Of a stretch of 64,000 bases of DNA, positions 8,441-61,143 are shown piece after piece; position 1 is the stretch's first letter, and each line of letters begins with the position of its first letter. The notes beneath the pieces are model-generated. The model was not told the DNA's origin, made no database searches, and worked only from the letters and a program-made list of their open reading frames with translations. The translations under genes and the position numbers were made by a program. This stretch comes from Desulfobacterales bacterium (GTDB lineage: Bacteria > Desulfobacterota > Desulfobacteria > Desulfobacterales > UBA2156): contig DRHF01000057.1 of assembly GCA_011049715.1 (NCBI GenBank), forward strand, positions 797 to 64,796, written 5' to 3'.

Positions 8441-9513
8441 ATTGTATCACCCATACTTTCATAATTTAATTTACATATTAAAACTGTTTGATCCGAATGT
8501 CAATCGACCTTTGCAAAAACCCGAATTTTGTTCGTCTCAGGCGGGGAACTCGCGACCTTCCCGTCAGGAATGACGGGACAGTCTCACAAACGTTTCAATG
8601 AACTGTTTACTTTTACCCTGATTTTTCCCTTAAAATGCGCCCTATGTGGCTCCATGTTGCAAACCAGTGTAGAATCTCAGAAAAAATGAACAAGAAACCG
8701 GCAGTGTTTCTCAAGATAAATGATCTGAGTGCGGATATTCTCAAATAATTTGGACCGGCGTAAACGATATAACAATTAAAATAATTTGCCGATCAAATCG
8801 TTCGAGTCACTTTTAAAAAAACCAAATATTTGGTTTAATTTAATGTGAAAATCGCTATAATTCACTTGACTTGCCATCTTAAAATCATGATATCTGTAAT
8901 TGAAAGAACTGTGGTGAGTCCGGTGATACTGGCAAGGTATGTCAGGTTTTGATTCGGTCAAATTTGGGTCTGGATTTAGAGGATATCACAGGTTTCTTAA
9001 GATCTAAGGTACTCTCAATAAATCTTTATTCGCATGATATTTAGTTTTCTGGCCATAAACCTCCAAGACACCTCTACATTTTCCCAAATCATCCCAATTA
9101 GATATGATGCATTATACATTTAATTTACACTTAACCATAATTAGATTTATATACCACAATTTAACACATTGAAAATAAAGACAATTAACTATTGACATCA
9201 CGTAAAAACAATTCTATATCACATCGTGACATACATATTCCTCTCAATCTCATTTTATTCTCAAGTGAAACTTGGATTCCTTTTCTGATCTTCTAGCTGA
9301 GTTGTCCTCGTTTCTGAATTTCTGCTACACCGGAATATATTTGGTTCCCCTTTAGATTTAGCCTATGAAACAGGTAAAGATTCAATGGAGAAACCTCTCA
9401 AAATGTGCATACCTTGCTCCTGACAGGATATGGATGTCTTGTTAGGAGCTATTGTTTGTTTTCATCAATATAAAGTCCTTTTGAGATCAGAATTACAAAA
9501 TAGCTGATTGTAC

Positions 9514-9547
9514 AAGACAAGGGGGTCAGGTCTTCATTCTTCACTCT
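9514..9547 (+). repeat. 34-nt direct repeat, proximal copy (brackets potFGHI)
   Basis: AAGACAAGGGGGTCAGGTCTTCATTCTTCACTCT. 33/34 identical to 14187-14220. Confidence 0.9.
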
Positions 9548-9730: not shown

Positions 9731-10846
9731 ATGCGTTACATATTTAAAAAATTGAATGCGCCCCTGATAGGTGCCATCGTATGTGCAATGATGCTTGGAG
9801 TGGGTAGTGTATCTGCTGAAGGTGTATTAAAAGTCTACAATTGGGCAGAGTACATCGCCAAGGACACAATTTCCAATTTTGAGAAAGAATATAATATAAA
9901 AGTCACCTACGACAGTTACGATTCTGCTGAAACGGTGGATGCCAAAATATTGACGGGTTCCACCGGTTATGACGTTATCTTACATGCGGGTAGTTTCGTT
10001 GGTCGTTTAGTTCCTGCCAATATCCTGATGAAACTGGATAAATCAAAATTACCCAACCTTAAACATATGCGTCCAGATATTATGAATCAGCTGTCAGCGA
10101 ACTGGGACCCAAATAACGATCACGTTATTCCCTATATGTGGGGAACCCATGGTGTGACTTATAATGCGGAAGCTGTCAAGAAAGTTTTCCCTGATGCGCC
10201 TATCGGCAGTATGGATTTAATTTTTGATCCAAAGAACATTGCCAAATTGGCCAAGTGTGGCGTGTCCTTCTTGGATTCCCCAACAGATATCATTCCCATG
10301 GCATTGACCTACATGGGCAAAGATCCAAGTTCCACAAATTTGCAAGATTACAAGGATGTGGAAGCAATGTTGCTTAAGATCCGGCCGTACATTAAAACTT
10401 TTGATAACTATGCTTATCAGAAAATGCCACAAAAGGAATTTTGCGTCTCGGTTACCTGGGGTCCGGATGGACTGCTCGCCATGTCCGGCGCGAAAGAAGC
10501 CAATACCGGTGTCATTCTGGATTTCTTTGCCCCACCGGGTAAAGACGCGTCAGTCTTGTGGATTGACGTCTGGCTCATTCCGCCTGATTCCAAGAATGTG
10601 GAAAATGCGCATCTTTTCTTGAATTACATGATGCGCCCGCAAGTAGGTGCCAATGATAGCAACTTAACCTGGTACGCTACTGCCAATAAGGATGCTTTCG
10701 ATCTGGTTAATGCAGCGGTGACTTCCAGCCCTGCAGCTTATCCACCAGCAAAAGCAGTGGCCTTGATGTACACTTTAAATATACTACCCGCAAAAGTGGA
10801 ACGTGCCCGTACCCGCGCCTGGACAAATTTTAAATCAGGCAAATAA
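9731..10846 (+). CDS. potF: putrescine/spermidine ABC transporter periplasmic binding protein (PotF/PotD family)
   Basis: 371 aa with a signal peptide. LKVYNWAEYIAKDTISNFEKEYNIKVTYDSYDS matches the PotF/PotD N-terminal block. SD GAGGAGG. Confidence 0.85.
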   Translation: MRYIFKKLNAPLIGAIVCAMMLGVGSVSAEGVLKVYNWAEYIAKDTISNFEKEYNIKVTYDSYDSAETVDAKILTGSTGYDVILHAGSFVGRLVPANILMKLDKSKLPNLKHMRPDIMNQLSANWDPNNDHVIPYMWGTHGVTYNAEAVKKVFPDAPIGSMDLIFDPKNIAKLAKCGVSFLDSPTDIIPMALTYMGKDPSSTNLQDYKDVEAMLLKIRPYIKTFDNYAYQKMPQKEFCVSVTWGPDGLLAMSGAKEANTGVILDFFAPPGKDASVLWIDVWLIPPDSKNVENAHLFLNYMMRPQVGANDSNLTWYATANKDAFDLVNAAVTSSPAAYPPAKAVALMYTLNILPAKVERARTRAWTNFKSGK

Positions 10847-14186: not shown

Positions 14187-14247
14187 AAGACAAGAGGGTC
14201 AGGTCTTCATTCTTCACTCTCCATTAAATTCTGTCAAGAATGAAGAC
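14187..14247 (+). repeat. 34-nt direct repeat, distal copy, extended into a perfect 12-bp hairpin
   Basis: AAGACAAGAGGGTCAGGTCTTCATTCTTCACTCT (14187-14220). Stem GTCTTCATTCTT (14203-14214) / AAGAATGAAGAC (14236-14247), 21-nt loop. Confidence 0.9.
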
Positions 14248-14755
14248 ATGGCCCCGATGGGTTCGGCCCTGTGGAATGCAGGGTCTATTCCTCCAGGGTC
14301 AGAGAAGAATCTTTTTTTCGTTGTACCAAACCGTGCTGCAGTCAAACAGACGAGTAACGGTTTTTCTCGCTTTTTTTTGTTAATGATGATAAGTGGACAT
14401 AACTACTTCAAGTTTTTTAAATAATGAAAAGTTAAAGGATCCAACAACCTGAGAATTAGAAGCGATTTAAAAAACTGACACAGACCCGAGTGCATTGTTT
14501 ATAGATAAAGGATGCCATGGAATGAACATAAGAACCCTATTTTTCAAATAGAGAGGCGGGGTTTTGTTGTTTTAGGCACGAAACCATAGGGTGACTTACA
14601 ACGAAGGGTAGAAGTCGGGAGCGGGGGAACCGTCACCTCGCAGACGACACACAATATACGGTGAAATTCGGTTACGGTCTGGTGAGGGTTTCCGGTGGGC
14701 TTCGGGCCACGGAATTGTCTTTACCGTGGACGCGCAAGGGGACACATTCCATTAA

Positions 14756-16297: not shown

Positions 16298-16628
16298 CCT
16301 GTCATTGGTTTTTATTCTCTGATGTAAGGATTGCTGTGGTTTTAAGCATCACAAAACTGGTGAAGGGGATTTCGATAAGTTGTACAATAAAAAATACTTG
16401 CTTATTATTCAGATTCCTCCATACAATTCGGTAAATATCAGTTCTGAAAATTTCTCTGGTTGGTCAGAAATTAAAAGAGCTTGCCGACGGCCTGAAAAAG
16501 TTCACAGAGGAAGCTGAAAAAAAAGAGGTAGGGATTCAGAGGTTCAGGGTTTGGGGTTCAAGATTGCTGATGCGGGAAAGGATGGGCGCTAACTATATTG
16601 GAAATGAGGGAAAAGAGGAGGCGGGAAC

Positions 16629-16938: not shown

Positions 16939-17172
16939 TTTTACAATTTCACGGGCACCGGTATACCCTATTGGGAAAACTCGTTGATCCCCTTCAAAGC
17001 CATTCGTCCTGATATATTCTTTCAGACGGTCTGCAACCTTTTTGGGAATTAACACAACCTCGGATTATCTTCCGCTTTTGGGGCTTTGCAAGAATAATTT
17101 CCGATCATCGACATCCTTTGCGCGAAGCTTGAGGGCTTCACCAATCCGCATCCCTCCTCTGCCCAGCAAAAC
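16939..17172 (-). pseudogene. tyrosine recombinase (phage-integrase family) fragment with internal stop
   Basis: Manual minus-strand translation: VLLGRGGMRIGEALKLRAKDVDDRKLFLQSPKSGR*SEVVLIPKKVADRLKEYIRTNGFEGDQRVFPIGYTGAREIVK. This is the TGxRxxE(A/L)L...K.....v.ip block of integrase catalytic domains. TAA at 17065-17067. It is 5'-truncated (TAG at 17173-17175) and 3'-truncated (no H-R-Y region). Confidence 0.6.
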
Positions 17173-17174
17173 CT

Positions 17175-17224
17175 AAAATGCGATAGGTTGCATGTATCTG
17201 TTAACATATATGCAATAATCTCAT
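17175..17224 (+). promoter_or_regulatory. about 50-nt conserved upstream block, copy 1 (promoter-like)
   Basis: AAAATGCGATAGGTTGCATGTATC...ATATATGCAATAATCTCAT. Roughly 80% identical by hand alignment to 18358-18407. Contains TTGCAT and an AATAAT/TATAAT-like hexamer. Confidence 0.4.
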
Positions 17225-17770: not shown

Positions 17771-18357
17771 TAATTTTGTAAACAACTTGTGATCTCCAAC
17801 TAATCCCCACAATCTAGCTGTCCCCCAGGATCTGAGATTGACAAAACATATCCCCACCATTATCTCTTCTCCAAAACCCGGGATATTCGTGTCGGTTTGG
17901 ATGAACAGATATAGAGCATTTAAAACTAAATACCAATCGCAGGAATATGTCTATAAAATGCACTATTCCTGATTCTCAAAAAGTGAGCAATGCCAAATAC
18001 ATTCCTCGGAAATCAAAGAAAAATCTCTTCAATCCCGATATTTCATTTTTGAGTCTCCAATTTTTCTATTTTTCTGACATTTGAATACGAATTCTATAGA
18101 ATACACATTGTAATAAGCACGGCGCACCCGGGGATATCACAGGTTTTCCTAACCCTGGTGATTATCTCAATTTACCACAGGTTTCCTATGTGTCTTAAAA
18201 CCTGATATATCTCCAACGATTCGGTATATATCAGTTCTGAAAATTCCTGAGATTTGATTTTAATCACAGGTTGATAGGGTGAATCTTATCGCATGGATTT
18301 GCCCTTTTTATTTGCCAAAACCCCCATTTTTCGGGACTATGGTTTGACAACAAATAC

Positions 18358-18407
18358 AAAAATGCAATAAGTTGCATGTATCAATTTGGTATATGCTATA
18401 ATTTCAT
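18358..18407 (+). promoter_or_regulatory. about 50-nt conserved upstream block, copy 2 (promoter-like)
   Basis: AAAATGCAATAAGTTGCATGTATC...GTATATGCTATAATTTCAT. TTGCAT (18372-18377) and TATAAT (18397-18402) have a 19-nt spacer. About 70 nt upstream of the PilZ gene ATG. Confidence 0.4.
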
Positions 18408-19070: not shown

Positions 19071-20282
19071 TCACCACCCAAAGTCCAGATGGGGCAAACC
19101 ATAACGCAAGCTCGCCATGTAATACTTTTCAAAGGCGATCTTCATCCAGTGCGCCCTCTTCCCCTTTTTGTGAACCAACTTATTGCGAGGCGGAAACAGA
19201 GGGCTTGCCGAAAGGTAAAACCCGGTGTCACCGGCATCGGCAATGCAAATAACCGAAAAATCTTTTCCCCGCTTTTTCGGACCCCCATTAATGTCCGCTG
19301 CGATATTGTGAGCCGCAACACCGGCCATCTCCGCGGACATCTGCCCTGTTTTTGGTACACCGACCGGCACCCGCGTTTCGAAGGGAGGGGGAAAGGCCAG
19401 AGACACACCAACCGCGTATACGTTTTGGTATTTGGGATTGGCCAGGTAATCGTCTCCAGGAATAAAACCACGTGGATTGGAAAGCCCCTCTATGCCGATG
19501 TATGCATGGCTGCCAAAAAAGGCCGGCACAATGAGGCTGAAATCGTTCTTTAATTTTTCTCCATCTTCCAGTTCCACATTTTCAGGTGTCACCTGTGCCA
19601 GTTTGCAGTTCACTTTCCATTCAACATCCCTGTCGGCGAATTCATCCTCAAGCATCCTCGTCATCATACCGAACCCGTTCACTCCGAAATGACCGAGATA
19701 CGGCTCGTTTGTGAACAAAGAAAGCTTGAACCTGTTTCGCAGCAGTTTCCTGCGCAGGTATGCATCCACCATCATTGCCATTTCATATACGGGACCAAGA
19801 CAGGACGCACCCTGTGCATTACCGAATACCAGTGAGCCGGACCCCTTGTCTATTGCGCCCATTAAGGCGTCTCTGGCATTAAGGGCTTCTTCAACGGAAA
19901 AAATTGAATAACTGTAACCTTTTTTAGGGCCCAGACCGGGTATGGCTTCAAAATCGAGTTCTGATCCGGTGGCCGCTATTAGGTAGTGGTACTCGTATTC
20001 TCCTTTTTCACCAATAACCCGATTGTTTTCCGGATCGGCCCTGACAATGGTGTCCTGAACAAAGTCTATACCTTTGCGACGTAAACTTCCGGCTACCGGA
20101 AACTGGATCGCAGAGGGTTTGCGCCAACCCATCACAACCCAAGGTAAAGATGGGATAAACGTGAATTCATTATCCGATGAAACCACTGTGATTGAATGTT
20201 CCCGGGAAAGGTGCTTTCGTAAATTTAGTGCCGAATGATATCCACCAAAGGATGAACCCAGAACAAGTATTTTTTCCCCCAT
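19071..20282 (-). CDS. sulfide:quinone oxidoreductase-like FAD-dependent oxidoreductase
   Basis: 403 aa. Rossmann N-terminus KILVLGSSFGGYHSA, a pyridine-nucleotide-disulfide oxidoreductase fold, and Cys residues in GASCLGPVYE and VICIADAGDTG as in SQR-type enzymes. Confidence 0.7.
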   Translation of the reverse strand: MGEKILVLGSSFGGYHSALNLRKHLSREHSITVVSSDNEFTFIPSLPWVVMGWRKPSAIQFPVAGSLRRKGIDFVQDTIVRADPENNRVIGEKGEYEYHYLIAATGSELDFEAIPGLGPKKGYSYSIFSVEEALNARDALMGAIDKGSGSLVFGNAQGASCLGPVYEMAMMVDAYLRRKLLRNRFKLSLFTNEPYLGHFGVNGFGMMTRMLEDEFADRDVEWKVNCKLAQVTPENVELEDGEKLKNDFSLIVPAFFGSHAYIGIEGLSNPRGFIPGDDYLANPKYQNVYAVGVSLAFPPPFETRVPVGVPKTGQMSAEMAGVAAHNIAADINGGPKKRGKDFSVICIADAGDTGFYLSASPLFPPRNKLVHKKGKRAHWMKIAFEKYYMASLRYGLPHLDFGW

Positions 20283-20308
20283 TGCATCCTCCTAATAAAG
20301 GCAAGTAC

Positions 20309-20361
20309 TCAAGTTTCACACCCCCAATGGGGCACGGTGCCGTATCTGGTGTGGGGTAAGC
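20309..20361 (-). repeat. R2 structured repeat, copy C (in the 5' leader of the SQR-like gene)
   Basis: Plus strand: CTCAAGTTTCACACCCCCAATGGGGCACGGTGCCGTATCTGGTGTGGGGTAAG. Homologous to 61019-61080. Its GGTGTGAAACTTGAG box (minus strand) ends 25 nt before the ATG at 20282. Confidence 0.7.
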
Positions 20362-20720
20362 AGTAGATCCTTAAAAGTTATTTTTGTGTATTTTGTGGCA
20401 AGAAAATTATATGAGAATATTTTTCCAATCTACTCATAATTGAATATTTTCGATTGAATATTGAATATTTAAGGTCCGCCTGCGGCGGATCAATTATAAA
20501 AATAACGATCATAAAAATGACGGAGCAACACGCGGCGCCTGCGCTGCGCGAGCGACATCCACAAATATTCAATTATCAGTATTCATTTTGGTTCCCCGAT
20601 AAATCGGGATTTCCGCTTCGCTGCAACCGGCTTGTCCGGGTTAGAACCGGTATCCATAAAGTAATCACCGTGCACAGGCACTCGATGGTCTGGTTTCTTT
20701 TGTAATATCAGTTGCTTCTG

Positions 20721-20846
20721 AAATGATAACTCTTAAAAGGTTTTGTGCCGTCGGCAAAGCGCTCATCATTAATTTTTTTCAGAAAAATTTCTTTTTACCC
20801 TATGCCTGATGCGACTTTCCTTAAAATATCAGGTGCAAAACTTGAG
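20721..20846 (+). repeat. R1 intergenic repeat (about 125 nt), copy 1
   Basis: About 94% identical by hand alignment (6 substitutions, one 1-nt indel) to 24531-24655. Ends in GGTGCAAAACTTGAG. Confidence 0.9.
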
Positions 20847-21269
20847 GTAAGCACTTTACCGAACAGTCATTTCCCATCGCCGTTTTCTATAGAAACATCT
20901 TTTTGAGACCAGATGAAGTGATTGAAAACAATTAAAAACAGGTAGCATTTATGCTATTTACAGTCAACATAAGAGAAATTTTGTGTAATGGATACCAAAT
21001 TGAAGAACCTCGCAGCCCTGTATGTCGGGATCTTCGCCGCGAATCGACAAGCTTCGGGAAATGCGCTCGCTGTTTGAGTTCAAATTGACATAGGCCCCTC
21101 ATAATTGCTTTTGACCCTTGTAATAAAAAAATGTATATAAATCGATTAAAGACCCCGATCTATTTCTGAAATGGGTTCAACCTATGATTTGCGGGTTTAG
21201 ATCGGCTTTAATCACAGGCAAAGGTTTGGCCCTGGATGCGCCTATAGATGAGTTAAAGGGAGGCATAAT

Positions 21270-21878
21270 ATGGAATACGATTTTCTTGTTGACACCTATA
21301 ACACCGAACGGATTAAGACCCTTAGCGTTTGGAGTACGTTCAAGGATGACGATCTTTTAATTCGCCCTCAACCTTTGGACCAAAGAGATCGGAATCCACT
21401 TGAGCACATGGTACATCAGTGCCTTAGTGAAGAGAAATGGTTCCACAATATGTTCGGTATTGATGTGGGCACAGCGCCTTTGCCTGAGAAGGAAACACGC
21501 CTTGAATTTATTAAACAATATGCTGGAGATTCCGGAAAACGACTTACCATTTTGAAAGCAAAGGACAAAGTCTGGTGGGAACAAGAGGTTTCTTTTTTTG
21601 AAACCAAGCGAATCAGAAGTTGGATTATGGTGAGGAGGATAGCACATACAGCATATCACCGGGGGGAACAGACGGCGATTCTAAGAATATTGGGAAGAGA
21701 AATCCATAGTATTTATGGGCCGTCTGCTGATACAGGTGGTTTACCACAAAATAATGCATTAACCATATACGCATACCCGGACATAAAATCTCTTATTGAA
21801 GGCGAATCCAAAGGCGGTTTAAAAGCATCTTTACCCGGACCTGGAAACGCGCCTAGCACAGAGCGGCCGGATCTTTAA
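21270..21878 (+). CDS. DinB/YfiT-like metal-dependent hydrolase family protein
   Basis: 202 aa. SD AAGGGAGG. His-containing helices (EHMVHQ, HTAYHRGEQTAILR) are typical of the DinB_2 superfamily. Confidence 0.65.
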   Translation: MEYDFLVDTYNTERIKTLSVWSTFKDDDLLIRPQPLDQRDRNPLEHMVHQCLSEEKWFHNMFGIDVGTAPLPEKETRLEFIKQYAGDSGKRLTILKAKDKVWWEQEVSFFETKRIRSWIMVRRIAHTAYHRGEQTAILRILGREIHSIYGPSADTGGLPQNNALTIYAYPDIKSLIEGESKGGLKASLPGPGNAPSTERPDL

Positions 21879-21996
21879 GAGACGCATTCAGTTCACAGGC
21901 GTTTTCTCCACATTTTAACCTGGCCATCGAATAAAGCGGATAGGGTCCCATGGACCGTGATTTCGAATTGGCAGAATCGTAAGGAGATGTAACACC

Positions 21997-23271
21997 ATGT
22001 CAAAATTGGTTCCACCCCATGGCGGGAAAGGGTTGGCCATCTGCCTGCTGGAGGGCGATGAACTGGCTACAGAAAAGCAAAAAGCGGTGGGATTAAAAAA
22101 AATAACCATCTCACAACGGGTGAAAGGTGATTTGATAATGATCGGTATCGGTGGATTCAGTCCACTGACCGGTTTTATGACGAAAGCCGATTGGAAACGC
22201 GTCTGCGAGGAGTTCCTGCTGGCTGATGGCACCTTCTGGCCGGTGCCGGTCACTTTGGATGTAGCCGGGAAAGAGGCGGTTACCGTCAGTGAAGGGGATG
22301 AAATTGCCTTATTCGATCCGAAGAACGACGAGACCATGGCCACAATGAAAGTCACTGAAAAGTTCAAGCTTACCGAAACGGACAAAAAATGGGAATGTGA
22401 AAAGGTCTTCATGGGTGAAGGAACCCCCACTAAAGATGAGTTTTGGAAAGTCGCAACGGAGGATCACCCGGGTGTCCGGATGGTCATGGACCAGGAGGAA
22501 TTCTACTTTGCCGGACCCGTCAAGGTTCTTAGTGAAGGGGAATACCCAACCAAATACGCCGGTGTCTACCATCGCCCGGCGGAATCCAGACAAATCTTTG
22601 AGGATAATGGCTGGAGCGATGTCGCCGCCCTGCAACTTAGAAATCCCATGCACCGCTCCCACGAATACCTCTGCAAAATCGCTGTCGAAGTATGCGATGG
22701 TGTCTACATCCACTCTCTGGTCGGCAACCTGAAGCCGGGCGACATCCCGGCTGAGGTCAGGGTAAAGTGCATCGATACCTTGGTGAAAAACTACTTCGTT
22801 GCGGCCAATGTCGTACAGGGCGGCTATCCGCTTGACATGAGATATGCCGGACCCAGAGAAGGTTTGCTACATGCAACTTTCCGGCAAAACTACGGCTGTT
22901 CCAAAATGATTATCGGCCGGGACCATGCCGGGGTGGGTGATTTCTACGGGATGTTCGAGGCACAGACAATCTTCGACAAAATCCCTAAGCCCGAACAACC
23001 CGGGCGGGCTTTGCTTTGCACACCGTTAAAGATCGACTGGACCTTCTATTGCTCTAAATGTGATGGAATGGCATCCCTTAGAACCTGCCCTCATGAAAAA
23101 GAAGACAGGATACTACTCAGCGGGACCATGCTGCGCAAGCTGCTTTCTGAGGGCGGCAAGATTCCGGATCACTTCGGTCGGGATGAAGTTCTGGTCATTC
23201 TTCGAGAGTATTACAAGGGTTTGACTGAAAAGGTTGAAATCAAGACCCACCGGGCGGCTACCGGCACCTGA
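21997..23271 (+). CDS. sat: sulfate adenylyltransferase (ATP sulfurylase)
   Basis: 424 aa with motifs [11 protein letters not shown] and [17 protein letters not shown]. Confidence 0.95.
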
Positions 23272-23368
23272 AACCCGGCAGGGTGCCAAATTTGTCAGCC
23301 TGTGCCGAATTTAAAGAAAAAGGGAGCCTGAAAACGGGTCTTTTTTTTAATCGGCAAAGCGTCAATCG

Positions 23369-24502
23369 TTACATTCTGCCCGTGTATTCGTTATAGGCAA
23401 GAGCGGTCGTACGGTATACCAGGTGTGCCAACATGGAAAACGGCGTGTAGGCAAATAGGCAAAAAACAAACATCAGATGGACAAAATAGATAAAATAGGA
23501 TAGTTCGCCCCATCCAGCCAGTCTTGTTATTTCCGTTAACATGCCCGAAAGACCCAAAGCCAGTGCTAGCCCCAGCAGGTACCAATCCTTATAAATAGAG
23601 AACTGGTCGGTTTTGACCAACCGATTTTTGATCATGAGGCTGCTGCCGACAATCAAGGCGACGCCACTGATATTGGCAAGCCATTTTACCGGGTTCAGCT
23701 GCGAATAGGGGCCGTGATTTTGAAAGCCATAAATGGCAAAAAAGAAAATACTGGTAACCATAAAAAGCCCGATAAATCCGAATAGAACCATCATGTGGGT
23801 CAGTTCACGGTCCTTGTTTTCAGAACAATCTGAAAACTTGGTATGTTTGAGAATAGTCGGAATCACACGGAAAAAAGCCAGGATAAATCCGGCGGGTTCG
23901 ATCTCTTTTTTCTCGGTTTTTCCCTCCATCAGTGCATTTTGATGGATATCCTTCAAAAAGCGTTTGAGACCCAATGCAAAAATGGCGACGGCCCAAAAAA
24001 CGGCCGGAATCATGACAAGATCGACCAGCCAGGTGGAAAAGAACTTGGCGTGTACAATTTCGTCTCCTTCCGGCGAAAAATTGAGCAAACCGGTCACGAG
24101 ACCCAGAACCAGGAATAAAATAGCGGGGATTGCCAACAAAATAGGCAAAAATTTCGGGTTATTTACTGCTTTTTCCAAGAATTTGGGGGCGGCGTATTCG
24201 GTAATGGCCAATGATCGGAGTGCCCCGAGAACATCCCCGGGTTTGGCACCGCGCGGGCAATTTGTGGTGCAATCGCCGCAATTGTGGCACAACCAGATAT
24301 CCGGGCTGCCAATCAATCTATCCTTCAGTCCCCATGATGCGGCAACCATTTCCTTTCTGGGAAAGGGTTTGTTGTCCGGAGAAATGGGACAGATGACCGA
24401 ACAGGTAGCGCATTGATAGCACTTTTTCAAATCTTCGCCGCCAAACGCGCCAATTTTTTTGATAAAATCTAAATCAGGTTCAATATGGTACCTCTGCGCC
24501 AT
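23369..24502 (-). CDS. qmoC: quinone-interacting membrane-bound oxidoreductase subunit C
   Basis: 377 aa. N-terminal HdrC-like motifs CYQCATCSVICP and CHNCGDCTTNCP, followed by a multi-TM haem-b (HdrE/NarI-like) domain. Last gene of the apr-qmo string. Confidence 0.9.
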   Translation of the reverse strand: MAQRYHIEPDLDFIKKIGAFGGEDLKKCYQCATCSVICPISPDNKPFPRKEMVAASWGLKDRLIGSPDIWLCHNCGDCTTNCPRGAKPGDVLGALRSLAITEYAAPKFLEKAVNNPKFLPILLAIPAILFLVLGLVTGLLNFSPEGDEIVHAKFFSTWLVDLVMIPAVFWAVAIFALGLKRFLKDIHQNALMEGKTEKKEIEPAGFILAFFRVIPTILKHTKFSDCSENKDRELTHMMVLFGFIGLFMVTSIFFFAIYGFQNHGPYSQLNPVKWLANISGVALIVGSSLMIKNRLVKTDQFSIYKDWYLLGLALALGLSGMLTEITRLAGWGELSYFIYFVHLMFVFCLFAYTPFSMLAHLVYRTTALAYNEYTGRM

Positions 24503-24530
24503 ATTTAGAGCTCCTATGACTACATTAAAA

Positions 24531-24655
24531 AATGATAACTCTTAAAAGGTTTTGTGCCGTTGTCAAAGCGCTCATCATCAATTTTTCCAGAAAAATTTCT
24601 TTTTACCCGATGCCTGATGCGACTTTCCTTAAAATATCAGGTGCGAAACTTGAGT
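24531..24655 (+). repeat. R1 intergenic repeat, copy 2 (between qmoB and qmoC, antisense to the operon)
   Basis: AAATGATAACTCTTAAAAGGTTTTGTGCCGTTGTCAAAGCGCTCATCATC...CCTTAAAATATCAGGTGCGAAACTTGAG. It accounts for most of the 201-nt qmoB-qmoC spacer. Confidence 0.9.
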
Positions 24656-24703: not shown

Positions 24704-26005
24704 CTAGAATCCTTTGAACGGGTTTGGACCCATTTCCTCTATACTGGCGACGAAATCATCAATGATCTGGGGAAGTTTATCATATTCATCGATCGTCACC
24801 TGGAATTGCATCACTCGCTCTTCTTCAAGGGCTAAGCTCGACAGAGCCTCACCGATCTTTTTCATCCTTACATCGGCGAGTTCGCTTCCTTTTACGAAGT
24901 GACACTGATAATCATCCCCGTGCTTGCACCCCAGAAGAAAAACCCCGTCCAGTCCCTGGGCGAGGGCATCTTTAATCCAAATCACGTTCACCGATCCAAG
25001 ACATCTAACCGCGATAATCCGGACATCCGCAGAATAGCTGAGCCGGTTCAGCCCCACAATATCAAGGGCCGGATAGGCGTCATTTTCGCAAACCAGGGCC
25101 AAAATCCTCAACGGTGGTTCATCATAATCGTCTTCGGATGGCACGCCGATGGCTTTGACCATCGACCCGATACTATCGATACTGTAATCGGAAAAGTTGA
25201 TAATCCGTTCGGGGCAGCACCCCAGGCAGGTGCCACAGCGTCGACAGCGGGTCGGATTTGACTTTGGTGTCGCCTTCTCATCATCATCGATCGCTCCGAA
25301 AGGACATTCTTCAGTACACCGTTTGCACTGGGTACATCTTTGGAAGAAAAAGTCAGGAAAGGTCATATCACCGGATCTCGGGTGAACGGAAACGCCGCGG
25401 TTGACCGACTCTGTGCACTGAATGGCTTTTAGCACCGCACCAGCGGCATCCTCAATTGATTCTTCCACAGTCATAGAGCGCCGAATGGCGCCGGCAGCAT
25501 AAATTCCGGTCCGCTGCGTTTCATAGGGGAAACAGATAAAATTCGAGTCGGCATATTCATCAAAAATCGCATTATCCCGGAACCCCGGACCCTGCCGGTA
25601 AGCCAGGTTGACCACCGGGTCATCTTTGGTGACCGGGACCATGCCGGTGGCCAGTACAGCCAAATCGGCTTTGACCTGAACTTTTTCACCCAGCAGGGTG
25701 TTGTCGGCTTCAACAATCAGGCCATCCTCACCTTTGGAGATGCCGGTCACCTCTCCTTTGGTCAGAAATATACCTTCGTCCTGCTGGATACCCGCATAAA
25801 AATATTCTGTGAGGCCGAGTGTGCGCATATGCTGATAGAAGACAAAGGCCTTGCCGTCAGGATAATCTTCCCTTACATACTTGGCCTGTTTGAGTGCCAC
25901 CAGGCTGGTTACTGCGCCGGTATACTGAAAGTCTTTATCATCCCCCTGACCCGGGCTTTGGATGAAGACCACTGATTTAGCTTCCTTTCCGTCAGACGGT
26001 CTCAC
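24704..26005 (-). CDS. qmoB: QmoB, C-terminal part (ferredoxin + MvhD-like domains), downstream of an in-frame TAA
   Basis: 433-aa ORF from GTG 26005, in the same frame as 26027..27040. CTQCKRCTEECP and CRRCGTCLGCCP ferredoxin motifs, and a C-terminal MvhD-like block LLGCKHGDDYQCHF. Confidence 0.85.
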   Translation of the reverse strand: MRPSDGKEAKSVVFIQSPGQGDDKDFQYTGAVTSLVALKQAKYVREDYPDGKAFVFYQHMRTLGLTEYFYAGIQQDEGIFLTKGEVTGISKGEDGLIVEADNTLLGEKVQVKADLAVLATGMVPVTKDDPVVNLAYRQGPGFRDNAIFDEYADSNFICFPYETQRTGIYAAGAIRRSMTVEESIEDAAGAVLKAIQCTESVNRGVSVHPRSGDMTFPDFFFQRCTQCKRCTEECPFGAIDDDEKATPKSNPTRCRRCGTCLGCCPERIINFSDYSIDSIGSMVKAIGVPSEDDYDEPPLRILALVCENDAYPALDIVGLNRLSYSADVRIIAVRCLGSVNVIWIKDALAQGLDGVFLLGCKHGDDYQCHFVKGSELADVRMKKIGEALSSLALEEERVMQFQVTIDEYDKLPQIIDDFVASIEEMGPNPFKGF

Positions 26006-26026
26006 GATTTTACCGCTATGGGCAAT

Positions 26027-27040
26027 TTACTCAAACTGGCTGTTGGTAACAACATCCGGAATCTCGCCAAAACCGAGATGAGCAAATTCCCCTTCTTCAG
26101 GCTGATACGGCCGCCACCCGGCGGCCAGAATGACGGCACCGAACAATTCGCCGTCAGGGTCAATTGTCAAGATATCCCGTCTGCCTTTATTGTATTCCAG
26201 GAACCTTTCATGGACTTTTTCGGCATCAAGCTCTTTGCCGTTTTCATCAAACTTCATTTCATCCGGCAATGGAAAAGGAACATCAAATTCTATCTTTTCA
26301 CCGGGTTTTTTAAATGTCACGGTAAATGCGCCCGGTTGACCGGCAATCCGCGCAACCACAGTATCGGTTTTGACTGTTATTCTGGAATAGTTTTTGAGTT
26401 CTTCTATCTTGGATTCGATGGTTGGCGGAATCAGGCTGTCAAATACGTAAGGTCCCGGCAACTGCTTGCGCCATCTTTTGGCATGGCCTCCCAATGCAGA
26501 CTCCTTTTCGACGATTGTCACATCATAACCCAACTTTGCCGCATCGATGGCCGCTGTGATTCCGGTGATGCCGCCGCCGATAACCAGTATTTTTCGGCTG
26601 AGCGTTTCAAGTTTATAAGGCTCGGGCAGATCAATTTTTTCTACTTTGGCCATGCCCATTCTCAGATAATCTTCTGCCATCATTTGAACGTGATCAATGA
26701 ACTCTTCATCGTCTTTTTGTTCTTCGGTGGGCGCCGGATATTTTGTCCTGGGATGGGACCAGACCACCTGTTCTCTCAGATTTACCCGATCGACTATACA
26801 GCCGTCAAACCGGAAGACATCATAAAGTACCCGGCGCGAACAGGCTGCTATCACCAAGGTATTGACGCTTTCGTCAGCGATATCCTTATTGAGGATCTCA
26901 AGGCCTTCTATACTGCACAGAATCGGGGAAGTTTTCACCGAAAACCCTTTTTCTTTAGGCACCTCGATCAGCTTTTCAATATCGAGGGCTTCACCGATCC
27001 CACAACCTTCGCAGATATAAACACCATACTTTTTGTCCAT
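26027..27040 (-). CDS. qmoB: QmoB, N-terminal HdrA-like FAD domain, ended by an in-frame TAA
   Basis: 337 aa. CEGCGIGE N-terminus, FAD fold ILVIGGGITGITAA. Ends ...VVTNSQFE-TAA(26027-26029), and the same frame continues IAHSGKIVRPSDGK.... Confidence 0.85.
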   Translation of the reverse strand: MDKKYGVYICEGCGIGEALDIEKLIEVPKEKGFSVKTSPILCSIEGLEILNKDIADESVNTLVIAACSRRVLYDVFRFDGCIVDRVNLREQVVWSHPRTKYPAPTEEQKDDEEFIDHVQMMAEDYLRMGMAKVEKIDLPEPYKLETLSRKILVIGGGITGITAAIDAAKLGYDVTIVEKESALGGHAKRWRKQLPGPYVFDSLIPPTIESKIEELKNYSRITVKTDTVVARIAGQPGAFTVTFKKPGEKIEFDVPFPLPDEMKFDENGKELDAEKVHERFLEYNKGRRDILTIDPDGELFGAVILAAGWRPYQPEEGEFAHLGFGEIPDVVTNSQFE

Positions 27041-38194: not shown

Positions 38195-38235
38195 TGCCGC
38201 TCTCCTTCATAATTTCTAGTTGTTCATATGCAACA

Positions 38236-38335
38236 CTAGTTTCGCACCTGATATTTTAAGGAAAGTTGCATCAGGCATAGGGTAAAAAGAAATTTTTCTG
38301 AAAAAAATTAATGATGAGCGCTTTGACAAACAAAA
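38236..38335 (-). repeat. R1 intergenic repeat, copy 3 (5'-truncated), directly upstream of the amidohydrolase gene
   Basis: The reverse complement reads TTTTGTTTGTCAAAGCGCTCATCATTAATTTTTTTCAGAAAAATTTCTTTTTACCCTATGCCTGATGCAACTTTCCTTAAAATATCAGGTGCGAAACTAG. The box ends about 40 nt before the ATG at 38194. Confidence 0.9.
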
Positions 38336-46297: not shown

Positions 46298-46524
46298 TTT
46301 ACCCTCCTTAGGATATCGAGCGATATCTATCAAAATTATAAATGGCTGCAATACCGGGTTCAATGGCCGATTTTGAAAAAACTGCTGATTTCATCCCCAC
46401 ACATAAATCCAGAAAACTCAACGATCGGTCAAATTACTAGGTAACTATATAATCCCAGTCTTAAAATATCAAGCTATAAACACTATTTTTGTTGGTTCTA
46501 TGTAAATAACATCGGTAGGCCTTC

Positions 46525-46613
46525 AAGTTTCTCCCCATTTATTTTACGAAGACCCGCTTTCGGCGTGGGCCGGATACAACTCTCCGGTGGATTGGAGGTG
46601 CGAAACTTAAATT
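46525..46613 (+). repeat. R2 structured repeat, copy A (complete imperfect palindrome) upstream of tRNA-Gly
   Basis: Left arm AAGTTTCTCCCCA (46525-46537), central GC hairpins (CCCGCTTTCGGCGTGGG; CCGGA..TCCGG), right arm TGGAGGTGCGAAACTTAAATT (46593-46613). Confidence 0.75.
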
Positions 46614-46682: not shown

Positions 46683-46758
46683 GCGGGCATAGCTCAGCTG
46701 GTAGAGTACAAGCTTCCCAAGCTTGGTGTCGCGAGTTCGAATCTCGTTGCCCGCTCCA
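46683..46758 (+). tRNA. tRNA-Gly (anticodon CCC)
   Basis: Hand-folded cloverleaf: acceptor GCGGGCA/TGCCCGC, D-arm GCTC/GAGT, anticodon stem CAAGC/GCTTG with loop TTCCCAA, T-arm GCGAG-TTCGAAT-CTCGT, discriminator U, encoded CCA. 76 nt. Confidence 0.95.
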
Positions 46759-61018: not shown

Positions 61019-61080
61019 AATTTAAGTTTCGCACCCCCAATCAATCGGAGCACCGCCTTCGGCGTGGGGCGAATAAAATC
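61019..61080 (-). repeat. R2 structured repeat, copy B
   Basis: Plus strand: AATTTAAGTTTCGCACCCCCAATCAATCGGAGCACCGCCTTCGGCGTGGGGCGAATAAAATC. The reverse complement carries GGGGGTGCGAAACTTAAATT, identical in its last 17 nt to copy A. Confidence 0.75.
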
Positions 61081-61143
61081 AAGAGAAATTCCTTCATTGC
61101 CATGCAATGATAAAAGCCATTTGAAAGAAAGGAGGAAAGATAA

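Follow-up and report, generated by a model that had tools for sequence, protein, structure and literature searches.

A repeat in the qmo operon of a Desulfobacterales bacterium as the probable right arm of a 292-bp non-coding element with ISPepr1-type ends

Is the sequence of about 125 nt that recurs upstream of three genes of a Desulfobacterales bacterium, once inside the qmo operon, a mobile element, a regulatory module or a part of something larger? This sequence, here called R1, lies in a 64-kb stretch of a metagenome-assembled genome (MAG; contig DRHF01000057.1), and the whole stretch is referred to below as the window. The initial annotation of the window had described R1 as non-coding DNA with a layout resembling a miniature inverted-repeat transposable element (MITE) and had proposed that one copy could supply an internal promoter to qmoC. 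Our analysis agrees that R1 is mobile-element DNA; several genomes contain it in more than one copy, and relatives differ in its presence. We put a probability of about 85% on the reading that R1 makes up the right arm of a MITE of 292 bp without coding capacity, mobilised by an insertion sequence (IS) of the ISPepr1 type, which belongs to the IS4 family and is frequent in Desulfobacter-like sulfate reducers. MAG and metagenome loci that were compared with the window are labelled with L-numbers (L011, L142 etc.).

The three R1 copies of the window are mutually 94–98% identical and differ from each other by 2–7 nt. Specifically, copy 1 matches copy 2 at 94.4% over 126 nt (BLASTN, E 9e-51) and copy 3 at 97.7% over 88 nt (E 3e-38), a similarity far above chance. 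These identities agree with the six substitutions and one indel between copies 1 and 2, and the two to three differences in copy 3, that had been counted by hand. A repeat finder pairs 20755–20842 with 38238–38325 (88 nt, 98%) and pairs the two forward-strand copies as well. The window sequence, the repeat finder and BLASTN all place the copies at the sites first reported; only the ends needed correction, with copy 2 stopping at 24654 instead of 24655 and copy 3 spanning 38234–38329. All copies are in non-coding DNA. Copy 1 lies between a Pyr_redox_2 gene, whose homologues are named sulfide:quinone oxidoreductase (SQR), and a DinB-family gene, copy 2 in the qmoB–qmoC spacer and copy 3 upstream of an M20 peptidase gene. 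R1 contains short spurious open reading frames (ORFs) only and its reading frame varies between copies, which bears out the earlier view that it does not code for protein.

R1 is the right arm of a longer element and no unit of its own. The R1 core 23-mer ACTTTCCTTAAAATATCAGGTGC, scanned as an exact match in one genome per species, was found at nine loci, all of them in two MAGs, of Desulfobacteraceae bacterium UBA2156 and of an uncultured Desulfobacter. When these loci are aligned, every copy ends sharply at ...GGTGCGAAACTTGAG, and in most of them, as in copy 1 of the window, the homology extends to the left of R1. BLAST and direct reading give a full element of 292 bp whose left end, CTCAAGTTTCGCACCCCC, is an inverted copy of the right end. 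The terminal inverted repeats are 15–18 bp long, CTCAAGTTTCGCACC(CCC) ... GGTGCGAAACTTGAG, and the ends of the family and of window copy 1 read CTCAAGTTTC(A/G)CACC and GGTGC(A/G)AAACTTGAG. Moreover, over about 73 nt one arm repeats the other imperfectly in inverted orientation. What had been taken for the inverted partner of the 3' end GGTGCGAAACTTGAG, namely CTCTTAAAAGGTTTTGTGCC at the 5' end of R1, is an internal look-alike only. The true partner of the 3' end, CTCAAGTTTC(A/G)CACC, lies 524 nt upstream in copy 1 (20308–20322) and is absent from copies 2 and 3, and R1 is thus not itself a MITE. The start of copy 1 at 20721 does not hold either: the family homology extends further left and the true element is 20308–20846.

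A family profile built from five 292-nt copies was used to search the window with nhmmer. It matches copy 1 in two pieces, and the middle of this copy is 278 nt of foreign DNA in place of family positions 54–84. Copy 2 lacks the left inverted repeat, is antisense to the qmo operon and has its inner end 27 nt from the qmoC ATG. Copy 3 has its terminal repeat mutated to GGTGCGAAACTAGTG; it precedes the M20 amidohydrolase ATG by 39 nt and has the orientation of the gene. Two inverted-repeat ends are present in the family and in copy 1, and copies 2 and 3 have the right end only; the latter two are best read as remnants, not as MITEs in their own right. A degenerate fourth piece suggested earlier at 8606–8645 gives no profile match at E ≤ 10, its alignment by eye needs several gaps, and it is therefore unsupported. 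The possibility that the 278-nt middle of copy 1 is a remnant of a transposase was rejected: it has no similarity to the IS described below and holds a different small repeat. This nested repeat consists of tandem ATTGAATATT units at one end and the inverted AATATTCAAT at the other, with a GC-rich hairpin GATCCGCCTGCGGCGGATC between the ends. Relatives of it occur in the metagenome loci L058 (twice), L101, L137, L050 and L123, and it probably represents a further MITE or an array of binding sites.

The family is by no means confined to the window. Besides the nine MAG loci, a metagenome scan with the 18-nt left end found at least 120 loci (contigs). Among the matches listed, the ends pair in size classes of 67–97, 112–134, 197–199, 288–308 and 1583–1596 bp, of which 288–308 bp is the commonest. 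Internal deletion of the 292-bp form accounts for the shorter classes, e.g. positions 1–147 joined to 235–292 and 1–63 joined to 231–292. The family thus has a canonical size of 292 bp, variants of 67–350 bp and no coding capacity. In 19 full-length copies the mean pairwise identity is 88.5% and conservation is even along the length. The target duplication is of fixed length, 7 bp: in 62 end-to-end pairs, perfect 7/7 direct repeats flank 17 elements and 6/7 repeats flank a further six, while permuted flanks predict 0.39 and 1.0, respectively. The perfect duplications are 82% A+T and usually begin with T (examples are TATTTTA, TAAAGAA, TTCATAT, TCAATTA and TTACTTA). In the plasmid collection nothing matches the 292-bp element. 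The one paper returned by a full-text search for MITE and Desulfobacter was an unrelated review; as far as this search goes, this abundant family is apparently undescribed.

An autonomous relative of the MITE is recognised by shared ends around a transposase ORF. Eight loci among the matches listed (L028, L059, L066, L079, L089, L105, L111 and L125) carry the same 15–17-bp ends 1583–1596 bp apart with one ORF inside, which is 466–483 amino acids long (493 from a TTG start in L079). The two IS ORFs that were scanned match DDE_5 and DDE_Tnp_1 in Pfam and the NCBIfam equivalog NF049925, 'IS4 family transposase', where they score 305.8 and 300.3 bits, above the 250-bit cut-off. The YREK motif Y-x2-R-x3-E-x6-K is found in all eight. 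All eight also end in ...GCET*, which is encoded within the terminal repeat GGGTGCGAAACTTGA (GGG TGC GAA ACT TGA); therefore the end sequence is under protein-coding as well as transposase-binding constraint. Duplications flanking IS copies are TCAATTA in L066 and TTACTTA in L125. Related transposases, 34–74% identical, are detected by tblastn in at least 12 of the loci. Members of the ISPepr1 subgroup have been described as 1500–1600 bp long, with ends YT-AA-YTT---A, the YREK motif and 7–8-bp direct repeats (Table 1 of 'IS4 family goes genomic', De Palmenaer et al. 2008, PMC2266710), and with AT-rich targets and 5'-CT ends (text of the same paper). The sequence CTCAAGTTTCGCA fits 8/8 specified ISPepr1 end positions at both ends of the eight copies. 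By these features the IS probably belongs to the ISPepr1 subgroup, which it fits on every tabulated point. Other origins considered for GGTGCGAAACTT, namely a sigma-54 promoter, an IHF site, a group II intron 5' end (GTGCG) and hairpin ends of the IS200/IS605 type, were dropped after the second end, the 7-bp duplications and the DDE transposase had come to light.

Relatives have these sites without R1. L142 has the same gene order as the window (qmoB-qmoC-sat-DinB-SQR) with an SQR-like protein 94% identical, and L143 and L144 are equivalent to it. The DinB–SQR spacer is 428 nt in L142 versus 987 nt in the window, and L143 has the gene spacing of L142. In the alignment with L142 and L144 the flanks run through without a break, and where the window has TGCTTAC, the 539-bp element and TACTTGC, the relatives have one TACTTGC. 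The copy 1 site is cleanly empty in these relatives, and the 7-bp duplication is slightly decayed in the window. The insertion point is 18 nt upstream of the SQR-like ATG, and 25 nt separate this ATG from the left end of the element.

The qmoB–qmoC spacer is 201 nt in the window and 98 nt in L011 and L142, whose QmoC is about 95% identical. Two more distant loci have spacers of 69 nt (L017) and 70 nt (L018); L018 belongs to the uncultured Desulfobacter MAG mentioned above, in which seven other loci contain the family. R1 is absent from all four spacers, in agreement with the earlier view of copy 2 as an insertion. In L011 and L142 the flanks are as in the window, and 20 unrelated nt replace R1 on its truncated side. 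The situation at copy 3 is similar. L140 and L139, with M20 proteins 98% and 93% identical, have a leader without R1 and about 53 unrelated nt instead, again on the truncated side; the junction beside the intact end of R1 is common to the window and both relatives. Neither the 20-nt nor the ~53-nt replacement sequence has significant similarity to the family in blastn-short or nhmmer. We considered them as decayed family members on a likeness seen by eye (e.g. ...CAAACTTAAAT) and rejected this, as nothing significant was found by these searches. At other places the family is present in relatives: R1-like sequence stands at the end of the L011 contig, and L143 is from metagenome Ga0255058, the source of many 292-bp copies. 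The family is accordingly dispersed and its insertions are polymorphic. A conserved leader, with R1 at identical positions in relatives, is not seen at any of the three sites.

The same comparison revealed a difference downstream of sat, which is followed by hemerythrin/DUF438 genes in L011 and by DinB and the SQR-like gene in L142 and the window. This points to rearrangement beside the sulfate-reduction cluster; L011 and L142 have the same qmoB–qmoC spacer.

Table 1. Members of the element family in the window, with their parts and associated repeats
Feature	Position	Strand	Description
Copy 1, complete composite MITE, 539 bp	20308-20846	+	nhmmer, two pieces
Copy 1, left part	20308-20360	+	family 1-53; nhmmer E 7.6e-12
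Copy 1, right part	20639-20846	+	family 85-292; nhmmer E 1.8e-69
Copy 1, left terminal inverted repeat, CTCAAGTTTCACACC	20308-20322	+	one mismatch to consensus
Copy 1, right terminal inverted repeat, GGTGCAAAACTTGAG	20832-20846	+	one mismatch to consensus
Copy 1, left target-site duplication, GCAAGTA	20301-20307	+	equals the single TACTTGC (reverse complement) of the L142 empty site
Copy 1, right target-site duplication, GTAAGCA	20847-20853	+	5/7 positions as in the left copy
R1 as first delimited in copy 1	20721-20846	+	MITE right arm; family positions ~167-292
Second, unrelated small repeat nested in copy 1	~20431-20588	.	ends: ATTGAATATT arrays; AATATTCAAT, inverted
Copy 2, right arm only	24530-24654	+	family 167-292; nhmmer E 1.4e-40
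Copy 3, right arm only	38234-38329	-	family ~199-292; nhmmer E 1.5e-27 (aligned 38329-38236, positions 197-290)
Solo left-arm module, TTTAAGTTTCGCACCCCC...GGGGCGAATAAAATC	61021-61085	+	nhmmer E 1.2e-6 (aligned 61023-61079, family 3-59)
Weak mini-element-like stretch, degenerate ends TTCAAGTTTCTCCCC ... GGTGCGAAACTTAAA	46522-46611	+	nhmmer E 0.17 (aligned 46538-46609, family 219-290); tentative member

The family membership, the ends, the duplications, the ends shared with a transposase-bearing IS and the presence/absence polymorphism were observed directly. The following history is suggested. The MITE would be moved in trans by the transposase of the 1.6-kb IS with the same ends, a DDE transposase of the ISPepr1 type. 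Transposition would be of the cut-and-paste kind, by analogy with characterised IS4-family elements. The targets are AT-rich 7-bp sequences that are duplicated on insertion. Copy 1 is a whole element that entered TACTTGC; the second small repeat came into its middle later. At the other two sites a complete element probably came first as well, the targets being TAAAAAC in the qmoB–qmoC spacer and approximately TTAGATA in the leader of the M20 gene. A single deletion at each site would then have taken away the left arm together with the left target duplication and, next to it, 20 or about 50 nt of host sequence. Long inverted repeats are prone to deletion, and there are short shared bases at the inferred breakpoints (AAAT; GT/T). 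For copies 2 and 3 we lean slightly towards this insert-then-delete history. As they stand, these copies cannot transpose any more because one end is missing. They would be transcribed with their host genes, copy 2 antisense in the qmoABC mRNA and copy 3 sense in the M20 5' leader.

Several observations weigh against this interpretation. A transposase of the IS type was not found by tblastn in the 64-kb window or in the MAG loci examined. The IS copies share only the outer 15–18 bp with the MITE and not its interior, and therefore may not include its exact parent. Sharing the ends alone with an IS is usual for MITEs. Recognisable duplications are missing from 39 of the 62 bounded elements, for which we assume decay and metagenome assemblies that join the flanks of different copies. 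The deletion history is drawn from two sites only, and at one of them TAAAAA(A/C) flanks copy 2, yet relatives without R1 have both of these repeats around the 20 unrelated nt. Finally, the arm-only copies are truncated at family positions 167, 199 and, in L003, 182, all close to the internal end-like sequence, which could mean that this sequence is used as a cryptic end.

The last point leads to a different explanation, that R1 of about 125 nt is itself a mobile sub-element, for which the transposase would pair the true right end with the internal CTCTTAAAAGGTTTTGTGCC acting as a cryptic left end; direct transposition would then have produced copies 2 and 3. In its favour, three independent arm-only copies have their left boundaries near CTCTTAAAAGGTTTTGTGCC (at 167, 182 and ~199), the flanks of copy 2 (TAAAAAA and TAAAAAC) match at 6/7 positions, and the fold of the R1 sense strand as a single RNA sequence has CTCTTAAAAGGTTTTGTGCC base-paired to the 3' end. 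However, the left boundaries are up to 30 nt apart and none falls at the start of the look-alike, which needs several indels to be aligned with a real end. The arm-only copy in L003 has no flanking repeat. At the qmo site the TAAAAA repeats already exist in relatives without R1, so that an insertion was not their source. Moreover, at both sites host DNA is missing on the truncated side only, which a deletion explains and a simple insertion does not. Because the left boundaries are not fixed and the TAAAAA repeats pre-exist in relatives, we regard the use of a cryptic end as improbable.

Alternatively, R1 could have been kept, or gene-converted, as a cis-regulatory or RNA element, acting as a qmoC promoter or processing site, as the 5' leader of the M20 gene or as a small RNA. 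All three insertions have start codons 25–40 nt downstream and leave the ribosome-binding sites untouched. It is important to note that a preference for AT-rich targets would account for this proximity as well and fits the distances. Copy 3 is 98% identical to copy 1 and yet is absent in a relative whose M20 protein is 98% identical, which points to a recent event. There is also a TTGACA hexamer on the qmoC-sense strand of copy 2, and the initial annotation had built an internal qmoC promoter on it. A consensus scan detects no sigma-70-like site in copy 2 on either strand. The spacer between the hexamers is 16 nt and not 17 (TTGACA-N16-TAAGAG), the candidate −10 TAAGAG is without the conserved final T, and both hexamers vary among family copies (TTGACA/TTGGCA/TTAACA and TAAGAG/GAAAAG/AAAGAG/TACGAG). 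No intrinsic terminator is present in or around copy 2 on either strand, and no promoter-like site inside copy 1 faces the SQR-like gene. At copy 3, promoter-like sites lie upstream of R1 (38399–38353, − strand) in sequence that is also present in relatives without R1, and for this reason R1 is here most likely a part of the M20 5' leader.

A role at the RNA level finds as little support. Rfam 15 gives no match at the gathering threshold in the window except one tRNA, and none at E ≤ 1 in 20280–20900. On neither strand does R1 fold better than shuffled sequences (z from −1.6 to +1.3). The consensus fold of the 19 full-length copies is a hairpin of the left arm against the right arm, with compensatory changes in 2 of 74 pairs and a covariation term of −0.46 kcal/mol. 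The search for a conserved RNA structure proposed earlier thus returned neither an Rfam family nor covariation beyond the arm-to-arm hairpin. Further, the orientation to the downstream gene is inconsistent (antisense to qmoC, sense to the M20 gene), conservation is uniform over the 292 bp as expected from recent spread and not from selection on one segment, and close relatives lack R1 at all three sites. A regulatory origin of the R1 pattern is on these grounds very unlikely. We hold it to be equally far-fetched that one-armed remnants were co-opted afterwards as leader or intercistronic modules that tune downstream genes. If this were true, qmoC would be uncoupled from qmoAB, e.g. by an antisense-oriented processing site or a weak internal start, and a transposon fragment would have rewired a core sulfate-reduction operon in this lineage. 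We found no sign of a role of R1 beyond that of a transposon and infer that the remnants are neutral.

That the repeat pattern is an artefact of metagenome assembly, made by collapsed or chimeric joins, is hardly credible: the window comes from a MAG, short-read contigs break inside R1 and many bounded elements are without matching flanks, but both flanks at all three sites are collinear with the same genes of relatives that were assembled independently, window 20817–24559 is recovered exactly, up to the repeats, in a separate Logan assembly of SRR7787409, and the copies differ by several nucleotides and so are not one collapsed sequence.

Two further stretches of the window are related to an arm of the element and carry the variant end GGTGCGAAACTTAAATT. 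The solo left-arm module at 61021–61085 is in the spacer ahead of a nitrilase-like gene. The stretch at 46522–46611, which can be counted only tentatively as a family member, is about 70 nt upstream of a tRNA gene (46683–46755). In each case a TTGACA-type promoter-like sequence follows outside the element. Other short repeats of 33–35 nt, 83–97% identical, were reported by the repeat finder and are unrelated to R1: 9514–9547 with 14187–14220, which have inverted partners at 14222–14265; 16423–16455 with 18216–18248; and 17164–17198 with 18348–18382.

Regarding the operon itself, qmoB (24704–27040, − strand) has an in-frame TAA at 26027–26029 where L011 has GAA (Glu338). It splits the 778-aa QmoB into ORFs of 337 and about 433 aa. 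Either a core sulfate-reduction gene carries a genuine nonsense mutation here or the MAG consensus is in error. Selenocysteine was rejected as an explanation, as the codon is TAA and not TGA and aligns with Glu in the relative. No record of the truncated product was found in other assemblies.

R1 is ordinary selfish DNA upstream of three genes, one of which is inside the qmo operon. It implies no new biology, and the qmo insertion is a curiosity, not a surprise. The identification has practical value, as R1 could pass for a regulatory motif or a small RNA beside sat, aprBA and qmoABC. Filled and empty sites can serve as a strain-typing marker, with three polymorphic sites within 18 kb here. 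The 125-nt foreign insert tolerated between qmoB and qmoC is a natural experiment on cistron coupling. Note that the Logan contigs L001 (= window 20817–24559), from the window organism, and L011 (at 10493–10527), from a close relative, end inside R1-type sequence; the repeat therefore fragments assemblies of these genomes.

How does the family compare with known systems? With the ISPepr1 subgroup, the IS relatives share size, the ends CTCAAGTTTCGCA, the YREK motif, 7-bp repeats and AT-rich targets. R1 and the 292-bp element differ in that they encode nothing and have only the outer 15–18 bp in common with these IS relatives. Bacterial MITEs are known from, for example, the Correia elements of Neisseria, ERIC, RUP and Nezha. 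Like these, the 292-bp element is small and non-coding, has terminal inverted repeats, a target duplication and internal-deletion variants, occurs in many intergenic copies that are often beside genes and co-transcribed with them, and can fold into one long hairpin. It differs from them in its terminal sequence, in the 7-bp duplication (TA in Correia elements) and in its hosts, which are sulfate reducers of the Desulfobacter type. What sets the family apart from those MITEs is that an autonomous IS with matching ends can be identified. IS10 and IS50 (of Tn10 and Tn5) are the well-studied cut-and-paste members of the IS4 family, with a YREK DDE transposase and 9-bp duplications. The likeness to them lies in the YREK DDE transposase and in short terminal inverted repeats as the sole cis requirement. 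Because nothing else is required in cis, a two-ended non-coding derivative would be movable in trans and a one-ended remnant would not. The differences are the 9-bp duplications and the other ends of IS10 and IS50, and the mechanism is carried over to the present family by homology only. On every feature tested the 292-bp element is a bacterial MITE with ISPepr1-type ends, and not a new kind of element.

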